Part shown: positions 10,844-20,874 of the stretch, piece after piece
How positions within the stretch are numbered: the first letter of the stretch is position 1
How the letters are laid out: every line of letters begins with the position of its first letter
Source: a virus
Taxonomy: Duplodnaviria > Heunggongvirae > Uroviricota > Caudoviricetes
DNA length: 40,277 nt
Virus record (IMG/VR): IMGVR_UViG_2563366843_000005
Strand: one strand, 5' to 3'
Translations under genes and position numbers: made by a program
Notes under the pieces: generated by a model
Told to the model about the DNA's origin: nothing
Databases searched by the model: none
Seen by the model: the letters and a program-made list of their open reading frames with translations, nothing else

Positions 10844-12370
10844 ATGAAAAAAGCCATAGCATATATGCGATTTTCATCACCAGGTCAGATGTCTGGCGAC
10901 TCATTAAACCGACAGAGAAGACTTATTGCTGAATGGTTAAAGGTAAATAGTGATTATTATCTTGATACCATAACATATGAAGATTTAGGATTAAGTGCAT
11001 TCAAAGGAAAGCATGCACAATCAGGAGCTTTTTCGGAATTTTTAGATGCTATAGAGCATGGTTATATATTGCCAGGAACTACATTGTTAGTTGAAAGTCT
11101 GGACAGACTTTCAAGAGAAAAAGTCGGTGAAGCGATTGAGCGTCTGAAATTGATTTTGAATCACGGTATTGATGTTATAACTCTTTGCGATAATACAGTC
11201 TATAATATTGACTCTTTGAATGATCCATATTCATTAATAAAAGCCATACTTATAGCACAAAGGGCAAATGAAGAAAGCGAGATAAAGTCAAGTCGGGTTA
11301 AATTATCATGGAAGAAAAAACGGCAGGATGCACTGGAGTCAGGCACGATTATGACGGCGTCTTGTCCGAGATGGCTCTCCTTAGATGACAAAAGAACGGC
11401 TTTTGTTCCAGACCCCGACAGGGTGAAAACTATTGAGCTAATTTTTAAACTCAGGATGGAAAGGCGCTCATTGAATGCAATAGCCAAGTATTTAAATGAT
11501 CATGCTGTAAAGAATTTCTCAGGAAAAGAAAGTGCATGGGGACCTTCTGTAATTGAAAAATTATTAGCGAATAAAGCTCTGATAGGTATATGCGTACCTT
11601 CATATCGTGCAAGAGGTAAAGGAATAAGTGAAATCGCTGGCTATTATCCCAGAGTCATATCAGATGATTTGTTTTACGCTGTGCAGGAAATTCGGTTGGC
11701 ACCTTTTGGTATTAGCAATAGTAGCAAAAATCCTATGTTGATAAATCTACTTCGAACAGTTATGAAGTGCGAGGCTTGTGGTAATACCATGATTGTTCAT
11801 GCGGTATCTGGAAGTTTGCATGGCTATTATGTTTGTCCGATGAGAAGACTGCATCGATGTGACAGGCCATCAATAAAGAGAGATTTGGTTGATTATAATA
11901 TCATTAATGAGTTGCTTTTTAATTGTAGTAAAATCCAACCAGTTGAAAACAAGAAAGATGCTAATGAAACTTTAGAGTTGAAAATTATTGAGCTCCAGAT
12001 GAAAATTAATAATTTAATTGCTGCATTATCTGTTGCGCCTGAAGTTACCGCTATAGCAGAAAAAATCAGAGTATTAGATAAGGAATTACGAAGGGCTTCT
12101 GTATCATTAAAAACTTTGAAGAGTAAAGCGGTGAGCTCACTTGGTGATTTTCATGCTATTGACTTAACCAGTAAAAATGGACGAGAGTTATGCCGTACAC
12201 TTGCCTATAAAACATTCGAAAAAATCATAATTAATACGGATAATAAAACCTGTGATATCTATTTTATGAATGGCATTGTTTTTAAACACTATCCTTTAAT
12301 GAAAGTAATATCCGCCCAGCAGGCGATAAGTGCTCTCAAATATATGGTTGATGGTGAGATTTATTTCTAA
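10844..12370 (+). CDS. ybcK: large serine recombinase (resolvase/invertase family), YbcK-like
   Basis: 508 aa, low-GC; N-terminal resolvase-type domain (AYMRFSSPGQ, catalytic Ser context) plus large recombinase domain with Cys-rich zinc-ribbon region. Confidence 0.85.
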   Translation: MKKAIAYMRFSSPGQMSGDSLNRQRRLIAEWLKVNSDYYLDTITYEDLGLSAFKGKHAQSGAFSEFLDAIEHGYILPGTTLLVESLDRLSREKVGEAIERLKLILNHGIDVITLCDNTVYNIDSLNDPYSLIKAILIAQRANEESEIKSSRVKLSWKKKRQDALESGTIMTASCPRWLSLDDKRTAFVPDPDRVKTIELIFKLRMERRSLNAIAKYLNDHAVKNFSGKESAWGPSVIEKLLANKALIGICVPSYRARGKGISEIAGYYPRVISDDLFYAVQEIRLAPFGISNSSKNPMLINLLRTVMKCEACGNTMIVHAVSGSLHGYYVCPMRRLHRCDRPSIKRDLVDYNIINELLFNCSKIQPVENKKDANETLELKIIELQMKINNLIAALSVAPEVTAIAEKIRVLDKELRRASVSLKTLKSKAVSSLGDFHAIDLTSKNGRELCRTLAYKTFEKIIINTDNKTCDIYFMNGIVFKHYPLMKVISAQQAISALKYMVDGEIYF

Positions 12371-12834: not shown

Positions 12835-13386
12835 ATGAAAACACTTATCGTTTCAACTGTATTGGCATTCATAACATTTTCTGCGCAGGCTGCAGCATTT
12901 CAGGTCACTAGTAATGAAATAAAAACAGGAGAGCAACTTACAACGTCTCATGTCTTTTCTGGATTTGGGTGTGAAGGTGGTAATACATCGCCCTCATTAA
13001 CCTGGTCTGGTGTTCCTGAAGGTACCAAAAGCTTTGCCGTAACTGTATATGATCCAGATGCACTTACAGGCAGTGGTTGGTGGCATTGGACTGTTGTTAA
13101 TATTCCAGCAACAATAACATATTTGCCCGTTGATGCAGGGAGACGTGATGGAACAAAACTGCCGACTGGTGCTGTTCAAGGCCGAAATGATTTTGGCTAT
13201 GCTGGGTTTGGTGGCGCATGTCCTCCTAAAGGAGATAAACCACATCATTACCAGTTTAAAGTATGGGCTCTAAAAACTGAAAAGATTCCTGTAGATTCTA
13301 ACTCCAGCGGAGCGTTAGTTGGTTATATGCTTAATGCTAATAAAATCGCAACCGCTGAGATAACACCAGTTTATGAGATAAAGTAG
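12835..13386 (+). CDS. ybcL: periplasmic PEBP/UPF0098-family protein YbcL
   Basis: 183 aa with N-terminal signal peptide (MKTLIVSTVLAFITFSAQA); recalled match to DLP12 YbcL. Confidence 0.85.
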   Translation: MKTLIVSTVLAFITFSAQAAAFQVTSNEIKTGEQLTTSHVFSGFGCEGGNTSPSLTWSGVPEGTKSFAVTVYDPDALTGSGWWHWTVVNIPATITYLPVDAGRRDGTKLPTGAVQGRNDFGYAGFGGACPPKGDKPHHYQFKVWALKTEKIPVDSNSSGALVGYMLNANKIATAEITPVYEIK

Positions 13387-13395
13387 GGTGAGAGT

Positions 13396-14193
13396 ATGCT
13401 GGCAAGAGGTAAGACTAACTTAAAGATCGAAGAAATACGGATGCATAAACATCATGAGATTCATAGGGTTAAGCCTCTTATGCCAGCTTTGTGTCGTATC
13501 CGTCAGGGAAAGAAAGTTATCAATTGGGAGACGCATACTTTAACTGTTGATAATAATCAAATAATATTATTTCCTTGTGGTTATGAATTTTATATTGAGA
13601 ATTATCCTGAAGCAGGGCTTTATCTTGCAGAAATGCTTTACTTACCCATTGATTTAATTGAGAGTTTCCAAAAACTTTATACGGTAACTGATCAAATACG
13701 TAACAAAACAAGTTTCTTTTTACCTCAGAATCCTGAGTTAATATATTGTTGGGAGCAACTAAAAACATCTGTTTCCCGAGGCTTCTCAACTAAAATTCAG
13801 GAGCACTTAGCAATGGGCGTTCTACTTTCGTTAGGAGTGAATCATGTTAATCATTTACTTTTATCATATAGTAAACAATCATTGATAAGTCGTTGTTATA
13901 ACCTGCTGCTATCCGAACCCGGCACAAAATGGACAGCAAACAAGGTTGCTCGATATCTCTACATTTCTGTTTCTACATTACATCGCCGTCTAGCAAGCGA
14001 GGGGGTAAGTTTCCAAAGTATACTGGACGATGTGAGGTTAAATAATGCGTTGTCTGCTATACAAACGACGGTAAAACCTATAAGCGAGATTGCCAGAGAA
14101 AATGGTTATAAGTGTCCTTCTCGTTTTACTGAAAGATTTCATAATCGTTTTAATATAACACCAAGAGAGATAAGAAAAGCTTCCAGAGAGTAA
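13396..14193 (+). CDS. ybcM: AraC-family transcriptional regulator YbcM
   Basis: 265 aa with C-terminal AraC-type HTH; low-GC. Confidence 0.8.
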
Positions 14194-15675: not shown

Positions 15676-15812
15676 TGTTTGAGTTTAATATGGCAGAACT
15701 TCTTCGCCACCGCTGGGGGCGTCTGCGCTTATATCGTTTCCCCGGCTCTGTTTTGACCGATTACCGAATACTGAAGAATTACGCCAAAACACTGACAGGA
15801 GCAGGAGTATGA
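15672..15812 (+). CDS. ylcG: small protein YlcG-like (46 aa)
   Basis: ATGA overlap with rusA stop; hand-translated [46 protein letters not shown]. Confidence 0.6.
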
Positions 15813-15897
15813 AGTCAGAGATAACAATCAACTAATACTGTTTTGTTGATTTTTGCTTGTAATTGGCGTTCTGGTCTGAGTTTTGTGGAGTAAGTTG

Positions 15898-16275
15898 ATG
15901 CGTGATATTCAGATGGTTCTTGAGCGTTGGGGAGCGTGGGCGGCTAATAATCATGAAGATGTGACCTGGTCGTCCATTGCCGCCGGTTTTAAGGGATTAA
16001 TTCCTTCAAAAGTAAAATCTCGCCCGCAATGTTGTGACGATGACGCGATGATCATTTGCGGGTGCATGGCCCGTCTGAAAAAGAACAACAGCGATTTGCA
16101 TGATTTATTGGTGGACTATTATGTCGGCGGCATGACTTTTATGGCGCTTGCACGTAAGCATGGGCGATCTGATTGTTGGGTTGGCAGGATGCTCCAGAAA
16201 GCTGAGGGCGTAGTGGAGGGTATGCTGATGGTGTTGGATCTCCGATTGGAGATGGATGCTGATTGTTCGAAATAA
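15898..16275 (+). CDS. quuD: late-gene antiterminator Q (QuuD-like)
   Basis: 125 aa from [22 protein letters not shown]...; Cys cluster ([12 protein letters not shown]); position upstream of the lysis cassette. Confidence 0.8.
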
Positions 16276-16373
16276 TTAAAGGAAAAGTTGCTGTCTGATT
16301 CTCATTAGTCTAACATTTTAAATGTTGGAATCGCAACGTAGTTATTATCATATAACAGCTTGTTTCCTGATTT

Positions 16374-16402
16374 AGCCAGCCTCCCCAAAGGCTGGTTTTT
16401 TT
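16374..16402 (+). terminator. rho-independent terminator downstream of Q (tR'-like)
   Basis: Stem CCAGCC/GGCTGG, loop TCCCCAAA, followed by TTTTTTT; candidate pR' hexamers TTGCTG-17-TAACAT at 16288-16316 are weak. Confidence 0.55.
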
Positions 16403-16430
16403 CTAATAAGTATTATTTCGGGTAGGGATT

Positions 16431-16955
16431 TTATTGTTTAACCCATAATAATTCATTGACATTGAATCCCAACTTTTGAGCGGTTCGCACATAGTCTGCT
16501 TTTACTTTATCTGGAATAGTTGGGGTCCTTGCCAGAATCCATAGGTATTCTCTGTTCGGACCACTGACAAGAGCATACTTATACTCATCATCCAGTTTGA
16601 TTACATTATAGCCACCATAGAAGGGGCCAAAAAACGAAACCTTCAACGCTGCAGTTTTAGTATCTCCAGTAAAGTATGCTTTACCTTCGCTCTCGCTCCA
16701 TTTATTTTTCGTTGGATCGTATCCACGGTTAAGTACACGAATCCCTCCGTCGTTCCGTTTTCCATAGGTAGCGCTGACCTGTTCCAGACCACGTTCGAAC
16801 CGGTTCTCGAGGCGAGCTATTTCATACCATTTTCCGAGGTAGCGGTTGGCGTCAAAATTTGTAATCGGCTGCACACCTTTAGGTGGTGTCGGGGCCTTAC
16901 ATGCTATAAGAGTGAAAGAGAGTGCAATGCCAGTCAACACAGGCCATAACTTCAT
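16431..16955 (-). CDS. outer-membrane lipoprotein, bacterial lipocalin Blc homologue
   Basis: 174 aa with signal peptide and lipobox (LIAC); strong recalled similarity to E. coli Blc (NFDANRYLGKWYEIAR, KAYFTG, LKVSFFGPFYGGYNVI, YLWILARTPT). Confidence 0.85.
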   Translation of the reverse strand: MKLWPVLTGIALSFTLIACKAPTPPKGVQPITNFDANRYLGKWYEIARLENRFERGLEQVSATYGKRNDGGIRVLNRGYDPTKNKWSESEGKAYFTGDTKTAALKVSFFGPFYGGYNVIKLDDEYKYALVSGPNREYLWILARTPTIPDKVKADYVRTAQKLGFNVNELLWVKQ

Positions 16956-17147
16956 AATAAATCCTGTACTTTTGATAGTTGAGAGTAAGTATGAAAGATA
17001 GATGATTACGACCGATCACTTAAAGAACTTTCATACTATATTAGGAATAGTCTATAACAGAAAAATTGTCAGTGATGACGCCAGAAAGGCAATTTATTCC
17101 GTGCACTACACAGTTTATGTGTTAATGAATTAGTCAAGGGGGAGAAT

Positions 17148-18107
17148 ATGATAAAAAAACCTGTGATTGGAATCAGCGGTTGTTTGGCCGGCTCTGCTGT
17201 TCGTTTTGATGGTGGTCACAAAAGAGCTGACTTTTTAATGGACAAATTAGTGGAATGGGTAACATTCAGACCAGTATGTCCGGAAATGGCTATAGGGCTG
17301 CCAGTTCCGCGTCCTGCTCTACGTCTTGTGCGCTCGACGCAAGGAAATATACGGATGTGTTTCAGCCACGACCAGAATGAGGATGTGACAGAGAGAATGA
17401 CAGAGTTTAGTCGTTCTTATATGGACAAATTAAAGGATGTATCGGGGTTTGTGGTTTGTGCTAAATCTCCCAGCTGTGGCATGGAGCGCGTGCGTGTCTA
17501 TGATGAAAATGGTAATCGAGGTCGTAAAGATGGAGTGGGACTATTTACGAGCACTTTGATGGAAAAGTTTTCTTGGCTACCGGTTGAAGAGGATGGGCGA
17601 TTACATGATCCAGTGCTTCGTGAGAATTTTGTTGAAAGAGTTTTTGCTTTGCATGAGCTCAATCACCTTTACAAGGAGAAATTATCAAGAAGAGAGTTAT
17701 TAGCTTTTCATAGTCGTTATAAGCTTCAGTTGTTGGCGCATAGTCAGGCAGGCTATAAAGATATGGGACCATTTGTGGCTGCAATACACGAGTGGGCGGA
17801 CCTTGAATCATACTTTGAGGTGTATCGTGATAAGCTGATGGCGATTCTCAGAAAACCTGCATCACGTAAAAATCACACGAATGTGCTGATGCATATACAG
17901 GGGTATTTTAGTAACTACTTAAGTACACGCCAGCGTAAAGAGTTGAGCGAGGTTATACTTAACTATCGTTCTGGCACATTACCTCTTCTTGCGCCGTTGA
18001 CTCTGCTGAAGCATTATCTGGGTGAGTATCCTAATGATTACTTGCTTACACAGAATTACTTCGATCCCTATCCGGACGAACTGGCTCTAAGACTGATGGT
18101 AAATTAA
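17148..18107 (+). CDS. YbgA-like protein (DUF523 TudS-like domain plus DUF1722)
   Basis: 319 aa; N-terminal Cys-containing motifs (GISGCLAG, VCPE, AKSPSCGMERV) resemble the Fe-S-binding DUF523 family; C-terminal region resembles YbgA. Confidence 0.65.
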   Translation: MIKKPVIGISGCLAGSAVRFDGGHKRADFLMDKLVEWVTFRPVCPEMAIGLPVPRPALRLVRSTQGNIRMCFSHDQNEDVTERMTEFSRSYMDKLKDVSGFVVCAKSPSCGMERVRVYDENGNRGRKDGVGLFTSTLMEKFSWLPVEEDGRLHDPVLRENFVERVFALHELNHLYKEKLSRRELLAFHSRYKLQLLAHSQAGYKDMGPFVAAIHEWADLESYFEVYRDKLMAILRKPASRKNHTNVLMHIQGYFSNYLSTRQRKELSEVILNYRSGTLPLLAPLTLLKHYLGEYPNDYLLTQNYFDPYPDELALRLMVN

Positions 18108-18458
18108 TTGTATGCGATATCATCCAAAAGGATGAGTTCCTGCATGCAGGATATTTACAATCGTAAAAACTACACTATGATACCCAGAGTGTCAGTTTGT
18201 ATAAAAACTCTGTTTACGCTGAAGAAACCATTGAGATGCAACTTAAAGTTGGTAAACATGCCAGTCAAAATATATAATATTATGATTCCACGCAGCTATA
18301 TATAATATAACAGATTGGTTTAATAATTTGTCTTTGTGAGTTAAATACATAATTTTATACTTGTGATGCAATGAGATTTTCCTTATTGTTGAACTGGCGA
18401 ATATTGATTTTCCACCTATACTTACCTGGTGTAACCCCAATGATATCAGGTGGATAAT

Positions 18459-19190
18459 ATGCCATACATATGTTCTATCATTTTGGTGTTGAACTCGTTT
18501 GATGTCCGAATTGGTAAAGAAGATATTTTGTTTAAAAAAGGAAGTGCTGTTCTCATTGATTACAATTTAAAAGATTTTTTTTCATCAAATATAGATCATG
18601 TAATGATCGTAGATGTTGAAGAGAAAACAGTTAATGATTTCTTTAAAAGCAACACACTCTCACCTTTTTCTGTAAGAAGGTTTTATCCGGCATACTTGAT
18701 GGTGGAATGTGAAGATTTTTCATTGTTAAAGAACTTGATTGCATGCTTGAATTGTGATGGCAGAACTGTGGATTTTGTTAGAAATCAAATATCACTTGCA
18801 TGTCTTGCTATCTTATCTTCAGAGAAAATAGTGCAAAGTTTTTTATTTGGATGTCTTAATAGTTTAGGAAGTAAAGTTAAGGCTATTATTCACACGGATA
18901 TATCTGCAGCATGGAGACTTTGTGATATATCTTCAAGACTGTATCTGAGTGAAAGTCTGTTAAAAAGAAAATTAAAGCACGAAGGCTTATCATTTAGTAA
19001 GTTAATTCTTGAAGAGCGAATGGTGATGGCGGAAAGGTTATTAAGCTACAATTTATATTCTGTTGGAAAAGTTGCTGAGATATGCGGTTATGAAAACACG
19101 TCATATTTTGTAAGTGTTTTCAGAAGATATTTTGGTGTTCCTCCCCATCAATATTCATCAAGACTTTTTTTAGAAAAAGACATGATGTAA
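18459..19190 (+). CDS. AraC-family transcriptional regulator, AppY/EnvY-like
   Basis: AT-rich ORF with C-terminal AraC HTH (GYENTSYFVSVFRRYFGVPP); N-terminus aligns with AppY; alternative GTG start at 18450. Confidence 0.75.
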   Translation: MPYICSIILVLNSFDVRIGKEDILFKKGSAVLIDYNLKDFFSSNIDHVMIVDVEEKTVNDFFKSNTLSPFSVRRFYPAYLMVECEDFSLLKNLIACLNCDGRTVDFVRNQISLACLAILSSEKIVQSFLFGCLNSLGSKVKAIIHTDISAAWRLCDISSRLYLSESLLKRKLKHEGLSFSKLILEERMVMAERLLSYNLYSVGKVAEICGYENTSYFVSVFRRYFGVPPHQYSSRLFLEKDMM

Positions 19191-19251
19191 CGTGATGCGT
19201 TTTAATGATTTTGTAATTTTCGTATTTGATAATTGTATGATGCTTTCAGCT

Positions 19252-19283
19252 ACGCCAGAATAATCGCTGGCGTTTTTCTTTTT
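19252..19283 (+). terminator. rho-independent terminator after the AraC-like gene
   Basis: Stem ACGCCAG/CTGGCGT, 8-nt loop, T-run TTTTTCTTTTT. Confidence 0.6.
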
Positions 19284-19378
19284 GAATAGATGTTCAAGCC
19301 TTACGCTAATGTAACTTCTATACCTTTCCTCTTCGTTCCGAACCGTGTACACCATCCGTTATTTGCGGAGGTGAGGCT

Positions 19379-19594
19379 ATGAAATCCATGGATAAGTTAA
19401 CAACGGGCATTGCCTACGGCACCTCCGCAGGCAGTGCTGGCTACTGGTTTTTACAGCTGCTCGATAAAGTCACGCCCTCACAGTGGGCAGCAATAGGTGT
19501 GCTGGGTAGCCTGGTATTTGGCTTGCTGACGTACCTGACAAACCTTTATTTCAAGATTAAAGAAGATAAGCGCAAGGCTGCGAGAGGTGAATAA
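19379..19594 (+). CDS. essD: class II holin / pinholin (S21-type), dual-start motif
   Basis: 71 aa MKSMDK... with two TM segments; GGAGGTGAGG RBS; matches DLP12 EssD and phage 21 S. Confidence 0.9.
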
Positions 19595-20091
19595 TGCCTC
19601 CATCATTACGAAAAGCCGTTGCTGCTGCTATTGGTGGCGGAGCAATTGCTATAGCATCAGTGTTAATCACTGGCTCAAGTGGTAACGATGGTCTGGAGGG
19701 TGTCAGCTACATACCATACAAAGATATTGTTGGTGTATGGACTGTATGTCACGGGCATACAGGAAAAGACATCATGCTCGGTAAAACGTATACCAAAGCA
19801 GAATGCAAAGCACTCTTGAATAAAGACCTTGCCACTGTCGCCAGACAAATTAACCCATACATCAAAGTCGATATACCGGAAACAACGCGCGGCGCTCTTT
19901 ACTCATTCGTTTACAACGTGGGTGCTGGCAATTTCAGAACATCGACGCTTCTTCGCAAAATAAACCAGGGCGATATCAAAGGCGCATGTGATCAGCTACG
20001 TCGCTGGACATATGCTGGCGGTAAGCAATGGAAAGGCCTGATGACTCGTCGTGAGATTGAGCGTGAAGTCTGTTTGTGGGGGCAACAGTGA
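19594..20091 (+). CDS. rrrD: SAR endolysin (lysozyme with N-terminal signal-anchor-release domain)
   Basis: 165 aa; Gly/Ala-rich SAR domain ([18 protein letters not shown]) followed by lysozyme domain; matches R21/RrrD. Confidence 0.9.
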
Positions 20092-20580: not shown

Positions 20581-20874
20581 TTATTTTGAGCAATACACAC
20601 GCGCTTCCAGCGGAGTATAAATGCCTAAAGTAATAAAACCGAGCAATCCATTTACGAATGTTTGCTGGGTTTCTGTTTTAACAACATTTTCTGCGCCGCC
20701 ACAAATTTTGGCTGCATCGACAGTTTTCTTCTGCCCAATTCCAGAAACGAAGAAATGATGGGTGATGGTTTCCTTTGGTGCTACTGCTGTCTGTTTGTTT
20801 TGAACAGTAAACGTCTGTTGAGCACATCCTGTAATAAGCAGGGCCAGCGCAGTAGCGAGTAGCATTTTTTTCAT
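20581..20874 (-). CDS. bor: Bor lipoprotein (serum-resistance family)
   Basis: 97 aa with signal peptide and lipobox (ITGC); matches lambda Bor / DLP12 BorD. Confidence 0.9.
   Translation of the reverse strand: MKKMLLATALALLITGCAQQTFTVQNKQTAVAPKETITHHFFVSGIGQKKTVDAAKICGGAENVVKTETQQTFVNGLLGFITLGIYTPLEARVYCSK

Follow-up and report, generated by a model that had tools for sequence, protein, structure and literature searches.

We analyzed the three-gene island that lies between the antiterminator gene Q and the holin gene S in a viral DNA of 40,277 nucleotides (nt), IMG/VR record IMGVR_UViG_2563366843_000005. This whole stretch is called the window. By gene content it is a near-complete lambda-like prophage of the DLP12 type. 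Its genes are integrase, exo/bet, a CI-like repressor, O, P, ybcK-ybcL-ybcM, ninB-ninE-ybcO-rusA-ylcG, Q, the lysis cassette, bor/iss, terminase, and head and tail genes. An earlier note on this DNA had placed a cargo (moron) island of three open reading frames (ORFs) in the Q-S slot. This is borne out: the Q-to-holin interval holds exactly three ORFs, a lipocalin, RudS and an AraC-type regulator, each with a strong family match and at the positions given in that note. The genes of the island and its boundaries are as follows.

15898..16275, + strand: antiterminator Q of the Q21/QuuD family, 125 residues (Pfam Phage_antitermQ, E=2.5e-51).
16431..16955, - strand: Blc-type outer-membrane lipoprotein lipocalin, 174 residues (Pfam Lipocalin_2, PF08212, E=7e-44).
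17148..18107, + strand: RudS, a TudS desulfidase domain with DUF1722, 319 residues (PF04463 and PF08349).
18459..19190, + strand: AraC/XylS-family regulator, 243 residues, with an alternative GTG start at 18450 (HTH_18, E=1e-14; HTH_AraC).
19379..19594, + strand: S21-type holin (EssD), with which the lysis cassette begins and which bounds the island on the right (Pfam Phage_holin_2_1, E=2e-35).

The G+C content is 0.43–0.44 for the lipocalin and RudS genes and 0.32 for the regulator gene, in line with the AT-rich AraC-type gene that had been described. No tRNA genes were found in the Q-S interval. No Rfam family reached its gathering score in the window; the matches obtained were below threshold and terminator-like. 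The Q protein matches the Q21 structures 6p18/6jnx weakly.

The lipocalin passes the cut-off of the NCBIfam Blc subfamily model NF007786 (316 bits, cut-off 267) and matches the solved Blc structures (PDB 3mbt, E=3.5e-69; 3mbt/1qwd, E at most 1e-67). Its lipoprotein signal, read directly from the sequence as MKLWPVLTGIALSFTLIAC/KAP, contains the lipobox L-I-A-C with Cys19 and has Lys, not Asp, at position +2. The lipobox aligns with that of K-12 Blc (LVVAC/SSP). The protein is 60% identical to K-12 Blc, and 80–82% identical to the RudS-linked lipocalins of Citrobacter sedlakii and Enterobacter cloacae. Orthology with the ampC-linked blc gene was rejected on these identities and on the different genomic context, and the window lipocalin is best placed as a Blc-type paralogue of the RudS-linked lineage. 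The gene is antisense to late transcription, as had been recognized before, and nmpC in K-12 DLP12 is oriented alike. In an earlier study of 19 infant-gut lambda phages, blc was among the morons listed, and more than 50% of the phages had it (Mathieu et al. 2020, PMC6969025); the phage records of that study are the same infant-gut records that carry the island here.

The middle gene had been described as YbgA-like. The C-terminal half indeed resembles K-12 YbgA (49% identity over 152 residues), but the protein has an extra N-terminal desulfidase domain. PF04463 covers residues 7–149 (E=3e-40) and PF08349 covers residues 192–309 (E=2e-40). K-12 YbgA is a 169-residue stand-alone DUF1722 protein encoded upstream of phr. 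The match to it is confined to residues 164–315, and the score against the NCBIfam YbgA model is 190.8 bits, below the cut-off of 237, so that identification as YbgA was rejected. Judged by the TudS-DUF1722 fusion, the predicted product is RudS, not merely a YbgA-like protein.

RudS is a [4Fe-4S] desulfidase that turns 4-thiouridine (s4U) of tRNA back to uridine (Jamontas et al. 2024, PMC11417400). The window protein shares 93% identity and 98% similarity with RudS_vir (H3V29_gp66) of Escherichia phage 1H12, which is likewise encoded in this three-gene island. The cluster ligands of RudS_vir and RudS_ST are Cys12, Cys44 and Cys110 (Table 1, PMC11417400), and all three are present in the window protein and identical in the alignment to RudS_vir. 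Residues C44-P45-E46 align with the CPE motif of the TudS structure 6z92. A KSPSCG segment with Ser107 and Ser109 is also present, as read from the sequence outside the structure alignment. Overexpression of RudS decreased the tRNA s4U of Escherichia coli 4.7- to 26-fold, RudS_vir overexpressed in E. coli likewise lowered it, and RudS_KT reduced the growth delay induced by ultraviolet A (UVA) (PMC11417400).

For the regulator, RefSeq and an AGGTGG Shine-Dalgarno sequence favor the ATG at 18459 over the GTG at 18450. The C-terminal part contains a double helix-turn-helix, with PF12833 at residues 161–237 (numbered from GTG 18450) and PF00165, and it matches the GadX DNA-binding domain (3mkl) at E=2.6e-20. 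The best NCBIfam model is YdeO, matched over profile positions 1–232 of 253 with 126.8 bits, below the cut-off of 348. The regulator is 54% identical to ECs_0287 of strain Sakai over 235 residues. Over about 234 residues the identity is 34% to GadW, 32% to YdeO and 31% to AppY. It is 30% to EnvY in a partial alignment, and 22% to YbcM, a second AraC-family regulator encoded upstream in the same prophage. The score below the YdeO cut-off, together with the AppY identity and the partial EnvY alignment, led us to reject the regulator as an orthologue of any of these three. The likeness to AppY and EnvY that had been noted is only a distant one, and the closest characterized relatives are the PatE/Psr prophage regulators. 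On similarity that includes the N-terminal domain, we place the regulator in the PatE/Psr/YdeO/GadW/AppY group of the AraC/XylS family.

ECs_0287 is the sole AraC-type gene of the Sakai prophage Sp1, which we take to correspond to CP-933H/OI-8. PatE (z0321) is encoded in CP-933H/OI-8 (PMC10877973). The prophage-borne AraC-like proteins PatE, PsrB and AppY activate the gadE/hdeAB acid-resistance genes (PMC10877973, PMC10057817), and our best guess is that the window regulator plugs into this gadE/hdeAB circuit. A search of 5.8 billion proteins yielded 25 clusters of its family, which is narrow and all but restricted to E. coli. The AlphaFold2 model, built on an 11-sequence alignment, has a mean predicted local distance difference test score (pLDDT) of 63 and a poor N-terminal domain. 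The PatE-type genes of Sakai Sp1, mEp332 and ev099, as well as appY of DLP12, sit in the tail fiber/att slot. The window paralogue is atypical among PatE-type genes in occupying the Q-S slot.

The combination of the three genes had been thought unfamiliar. The survey does not support this: about 21% of complete E. coli genomes have the island, it lies in prophages at the DLP12 site and of the Qin type, and cultured lambda-like phages carry it too. A megablast search of 5426 complete E. coli genomes with the 3.1-kb island found it in 1156, with at least 80% coverage in 992 and up to three copies in some genomes. The RudS gene is present at 80% of its length or more in 1064 of the 5426. Few occupants of the E. 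coli Q-S slot are as common as this island. It lies at the argU/DLP12 site in E. coli CE10, with 100% identity, and beside hokD-rem-ydfU in Qin-type prophages (STEC1575, BL21(DE3)). Twelve sequenced lambdoid coliphages carry it: IdasGreatGrand at 99.2% identity, and eleven infant-gut Jouyvirus records ('Lambda_ev', 1H12 and 2E9) at 89.4%. The order Q, lipocalin (-), RudS (+), AraC (+), holin is common to CE10, the phages 2E9, 1H12 and IdasGreatGrand, and a Qin-type prophage.

With the RudS protein as query, 80 viral contigs were retrieved from IMG/VR. All 80 carry the island, and the gene order is the same wherever the contig spans it; the exceptions are contigs that end early, regulators split by a frameshift, and one locus without the regulator. 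Three diverged allele groups are distinguished, at about 89%, 94% and 99–100% DNA identity, and each keeps all three ORFs. The island was also seen in a metagenome-assembled genome (MAG) named 'Candidatus Nanosynbacter sp.' (D148_maxbin.008), in which the contigs JARKOR010000151 and JARKOR010000135 encode Q, lipocalin, RudS, AraC, holin and lysozyme at 94–100% protein identity to the coliphage island. These contigs of a Saccharibacteria MAG are almost certainly mis-binned coliphage or E. coli DNA.

E. coli was said to lack RudS, and the host used for the s4U measurements was BL21(DE3) (PMC11417400). A Qin-type prophage of BL21(DE3) (NC_012971.2, 1588189-1589052) contains the lipocalin gene and a RudS stump of 49 codons truncated by the insertion sequence (IS) IS3. 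The statement that E. coli lacks RudS fails at the species level, since about 20% of complete genomes carry a prophage copy.

The junctions of the island and the signals within it bear on how the island moves and how it may be expressed. The features concerned are listed here.

16276..16373, + strand: Q-proximal leader, the presumed late promoter pR'/Q-utilization region from lambdoid architecture.
16374..16402, + strand: intrinsic terminator downstream of Q (tR'-like), about 100 nt past the Q stop codon, with a 9-bp stem, 5 GC pairs and a T7 run.
16956..17147, no strand assigned: divergent lipocalin/RudS intergenic region of 192 bp, the presumed site of cassette promoters, 89.6% identical to phage 1H12.
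18154..18181, + strand: candidate sigma-70 promoter of the regulator, TTTACA-N16-TATGAT, 10/12 match.
18575..18582, + strand: T8 homopolymer at regulator codons 40–43, a frameshift hotspot and the longest homopolymer in the window.
19252..19283, + strand: intrinsic terminator between the regulator and the holin, with a 7-bp stem, 5 GC pairs and a T-run.

Window Q is 88% identical to K-12 QuuD, and the differences are clustered past residue 77. The 3' half of Q is therefore read as the left recombination boundary of the module. On the right, homology with K-12 DLP12 resumes about 60–100 nt upstream of the holin start codon. The Q-proximal leader is 91% conserved between the window and phage 1H12, and it is unrelated to the quuD-nmpC spacer of K-12 DLP12. 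A search for flanking repeats that would point to transposition found short chance matches only. From the junction positions and the leader unrelated to that of DLP12, we conclude that the cassette and the Q/late-promoter module move as one unit from one lambdoid phage to another.

Both terminators that had been proposed are present on the + strand. The stems, at 16374–16397 and 19252–19273, are each followed by a T-run, and these are the sole terminator-like sites in 15800–19700. The RNA of 16318–16410 folds with -24.1 kcal/mol (z=-3.7). The two terminators are conserved in 1H12 and in a Qin-type prophage. Their number does not exceed that in shuffled sequences (2.8 ± 1.6). Because the count alone is within the shuffle range, the significance of the terminators rests on their position and conservation.

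The scan for a late promoter returned a single 9/12 site at 16247–16276. In the lipocalin/RudS spacer there is a single weak promoter-like site at 16979–17006, and no convincing promoter for RudS or the lipocalin was found by the scan. A 43-residue ORF at 17002–17133, annotated in phage IdasGreatGrand, was considered and set aside as probably spurious, having a stop at codon 32 in other alleles. The candidate regulator promoter at 18154–18181 starts about 45 nt past the RudS stop codon. A 30-nt promoter block hardly differs between the window and the 1H12 allele, and the rest of the 351-bp AT-rich spacer is 76% identical with insertions and deletions. The invariance of this block amid a poorly conserved spacer argues for a promoter of the regulator's own at 18154–18181, with a leader of about 270 nt.

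Next we consider where the genes come from. A scan with the RudS protein, using one genome per species, gave 62 chromosomal loci with 66–77% protein identity, from Citrobacter, Enterobacter, Leclercia, Kluyvera, Klebsiella, Lelliottia, Pectobacterium and Dickeya. Of these, 42 have a lipocalin homologue a short way upstream of RudS, on the opposite strand. The arrangement lipocalin (-), MlrA/BluR-like MerR (+), transthyretin/HIUase-like (+), RudS (+) occurs in 36 loci, for example in Enterobacter cloacae (locus L029, 4021-6960). In two loci (C. sedlakii and Citrobacter sp. JGM124) the lipocalin and RudS genes are directly adjacent, with a divergent spacer of about 190 bp as in the phage. No phage genes were found in the 62 loci, and tblastn found the AraC-type regulator in none of them. 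The earlier note had asked whether the trio might stand together at a chromosomal locus with no phage association. This is found for two of the genes, as lipocalin and RudS are contiguous or closely linked in other enterobacterial genera, but the regulator is absent there.

The synonymous divergence between phage and chromosomal copies of the pair is saturated, and the lipocalin-RudS intergenic DNA of phage and chromosome shows no conservation and is not alignable. The capture of the pair is therefore old, with a donor outside the sampled species. The regulator was acquired separately, because it is never found in the chromosomal loci and its G+C content is far from that of the other two genes. 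The MerR neighbor is 36–40% identical to both K-12 BluR and MlrA, and no BluF is nearby. A light-responsive link was suggested by the authors for MerR-linked RudS genes (PMC11417400), and a light-responsive ancestry of the lipocalin-RudS cluster is possible. No Phr (photolyase) homologue was found within ±6 kb of RudS in the 62 loci, so a photolyase linkage of RudS in Enterobacteriaceae was rejected. We also rejected the Salmonella SPI-2 'orf242', beside ORF319/RudS_ST, as a homologue of the phage AraC gene that would have made the trio chromosomal, since this AraC gene occurs in none of the 62 loci and the neighbor belongs to the MerR family. The neighbor of Salmonella RudS_ST was described as a MerR-family regulator (PMC11417400), and that in Enterobacter is an MlrA-like MerR protein. 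The lipocalin-RudS link is not mentioned in the RudS literature examined. Citrobacter braakii ATCC 51113 has two RudS loci on separate contigs; both show 76% identity to the phage protein, and no lipocalin is linked to either.

Selection was estimated by the ratio of nonsynonymous to synonymous substitution rates (dN/dS). Between the window and 1H12 alleles the lipocalin gives 0.06, RudS 0.10 and the regulator 0.27, with Q at 0.12 and the holin at 0.07. Across comparisons the range is 0.06–0.19 for the lipocalin and 0.10–0.19 for RudS. All three genes are under purifying selection, and the regulator is the least constrained. Practically all of the 80 viral contigs have full-length lipocalin and RudS genes.

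Of the three genes, the regulator is also the one found broken most frequently, and it contains the T8 tract. Among 53 full-length related loci of viral contigs, the tract is T8 in 44, T7 in 6, T6 in 2 and T9 in 1, with at least four independent changes of length by nearest-neighbor comparison of the masked island. Among the 583 complete E. coli genomes with this allele, an exact T8 probe matches 240 and an exact T7 probe 232; these counts may include homopolymer errors in some assemblies. T7 leads to a stop after codon 45, and gene callers then give a 195-residue product from Met50 (cluster P0011). In the other allele groups the T tract is interrupted, and for this reason the idea of T8 as a conserved 'contingency' or phase switch was rejected. 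T8 seems rather to be a mutational hotspot of this particular allele, and T7 to be fixed in a single large lineage. In strain SRY206 the regulator has been lost to IS1. The regulator is likely the most dispensable part of the cassette.

We read the interval as a moron cassette, conserved and mobile, that is passed on together with the Q/late-promoter module of lambda-like coliphages, and give this reading a probability of about 0.8. The cassette would have originated by capture of a chromosomal lipocalin-RudS pair with loss of the MerR and transthyretin-like genes, and the AT-rich AraC regulator of the PatE/Psr clade would have been added as a separate acquisition.

In lambdoid late architecture, Q acts at a promoter just past its gene, and the late transcript must reach S-R-Rz. 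On this architecture, transcripts from the late promoter in the lysogen would stop at the terminator at 16374–16402. The lipocalin, RudS and the regulator would then need promoters of their own, and the terminator at 19252–19283 would keep cassette transcription out of the holin gene. Upon induction, Q-modified polymerase would pass both terminators to S-R-Rz. This would bring high-level sense transcription of RudS and the regulator, as for stx, and antisense transcription across the lipocalin, as for nmpC. The likely pay-offs are a lower tRNA s4U content with less near-UV growth delay, maintenance of envelope lipid, and altered regulation of acid stress.

Several points weigh against the mobile cassette and the functions proposed for it. 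The candidate hexamers for the late promoter are weak, and with no convincing promoter of its own RudS might be expressed solely after induction. RudS_vir desulfidated tRNA less than other RudS proteins despite good protein levels (PMC11417400). The targets suggested for the regulator are carried over from relatives at 54% identity, and ECs_0287 is probably PatE, by position in Sp1/OI-8 and not by accession match. About 40% of the complete genomes with this regulator allele have the T7 frameshift, and IS elements frequently interrupt the island, in about 1 in 6 of the records that were sampled over the whole ranking. The cassette has thus often lost some of its parts.

A different account, which we regard as a possibility of the minor kind, takes RudS as mainly a lytic auxiliary: the gene would lack its own promoter, and the Q-antiterminated late transcript formed upon SOS/UV induction would be its sole source. 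Stripping s4U would then spare late protein synthesis from near-UV cross-linking, uncharged tRNA and the stringent response. The position of RudS suits this, as the gene is co-oriented between the Q-proximal terminator and S with the weak promoter-like site alone upstream, and the chromosomal MerR regulator has been lost in the phage version. It is also retained in plaque-forming or inducible phages, and RudS overexpression reduces UVA growth delay (PMC11417400). However, the conservation of the 192-bp upstream region among phage alleles (89.6%) fits a promoter, and the gene is intact in many defective prophages (CE10, Qin-type), which argues for a benefit to the lysogen.

A more specific proposal, which we put forward with still greater hesitation, is a UV/SOS-triggered eraser, placed in the Q-dependent late operon, of the near-UV sensor s4U8 in host tRNAs, which would uncouple late phage translation or lysogen growth from the s4U-dependent growth delay and the stringent response. 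If this is true, the lipocalin would be an envelope-repair partner co-inherited from an ancestral MerR-controlled stress cluster, and RudS would give the phage an epitranscriptomic means of takeover that is coupled to the inducing signal itself.

It is very improbable that the island is non-functional and decaying, and persists only as a hitch-hiker of the successful Q-lysis module around it. The IS interruptions, the 49 codons of RudS left in BL21(DE3), the loss of the regulator in SRY206, and T7 frameshift alleles about as common as T8 speak for decay. Against it, full-length lipocalin and RudS genes persist in the viral contigs, their dN/dS values (0.06–0.19) are similar to those of Q and the holin, and the three diverged allele groups all keep the three ORFs. 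The saturated synonymous divergence from chromosomal homologues means that the genes have been long maintained. With that divergence and the low dN/dS, the recent non-functional hitch-hiker envisaged in the earlier note does not describe this island. An anti-defense or superinfection module, with RudS evading tRNA-targeting defenses or the lipocalin blocking adsorption, is equally improbable: Q-S morons often affect phage-host conflict and the lipocalin is surface-associated, but nothing directly in favor of such a module was found, no PADLOC defense model matches any of the three proteins, PHROGs has all three families as 'unknown function', and in many genera the chromosomal homologues of the pair are of a housekeeping type and stand under a MerR regulator.

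The mobile cassette is ordinary rather than new insofar as its parts are already known; the lipocalin moron and a phage RudS are in the literature. A literature search on lipocalin, YbgA and prophage found no paper, and the RudS paper (PMC11417400) does not mention the lipocalin. The fixed three-gene composition with its linkage to Q and its prevalence in E. coli appear to be undescribed so far, and so do the lipocalin-MerR-transthyretin-RudS ancestry of two genes, the PatE-clade identity of the third, and the T7/T8 polymorphism.

The cassette shows how lambdoid cargo is assembled, in that an old pair from the chromosome and a regulator of other descent move jointly with Q. Prophages may account for differences between strains in tRNA s4U content and in the response to UVA. 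The regulator is a widespread uncharacterized PatE/Psr paralogue, with the intact T8 and frameshifted T7 forms about equally frequent, and this matters when regulons are inferred from genomes. The understanding of phage biology is unchanged unless the late-operon placement of RudS proves functionally important.

Two further cargo regions were seen in the window. A block in the nin region (12835–14193) consists of ybcL, encoding a Raf-kinase-inhibitor-like periplasmic protein, and ybcM. The serine recombinase gene ybcK (10844–12370) lies just upstream of it. The ybcM regulon is uncharacterized according to the AppY paper. The other is a Bor/Iss-type serum-resistance lipoprotein gene at 20581–20874 (- strand), antisense directly past Rz and annotated as iss in CE10. 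It is another classic moron of the lambdoid late region.

The island can be compared with known systems at the level of the slot and of each gene. The stxAB genes of Shiga toxin (Stx) phages occupy the same slot between Q/tR' and the holin and are sense genes crossed by late transcription. The nmpC gene of K-12 DLP12 encodes an outer-membrane protein, antisense directly past Q in the same slot. In Q-S morons generally, as here, the G+C content is foreign, a terminator separates the cargo from S, and the occupancy of the slot varies among related phages. The window differs from stx and nmpC in that its cargo is a lipocalin, an eraser of tRNA modification and a regulator instead of a toxin or porin, and in that there are no tRNA genes in the interval.

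The chromosomal clusters of Enterobacter, Leclercia and Citrobacter share the lipocalin (about 80% identity), RudS (about 70–77%) and the divergent orientation with the phage, and in C. sedlakii the two genes are adjacent. RudS_ST/ORF319 of Salmonella is also MerR-linked. The phage copy, in contrast, is without the MerR and transthyretin-like genes, has unrelated intergenic DNA and lies inside a late operon. RudS_vir of 1H12 agrees with the window protein in domain fusion, in Cys12/44/110 and in its position in the three-gene island. It belongs to another allele group, with about 89% DNA identity across the island, and its genomic context was left unexamined in the report on it (PMC11417400). 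E. coli Blc (b4149) has the same fold family and the same kind of lipoprotein signal with a lipobox Cys, and the window protein passes the Blc subfamily cut-off. The two differ in sequence (60% identity) and in that the window gene is outside the ampC-blc locus. PatE, the PsrA/PsrB proteins of enterohemorrhagic E. coli (EHEC) and AppY of DLP12 resemble the window regulator as AT-rich, prophage-borne AraC/XylS proteins of 243–249 residues with full-length similarity. The window protein stands apart by its 54% identity to the Sakai Sp1 protein and 31% to AppY, and by its location in the Q-S slot rather than the tail fiber/att slot.

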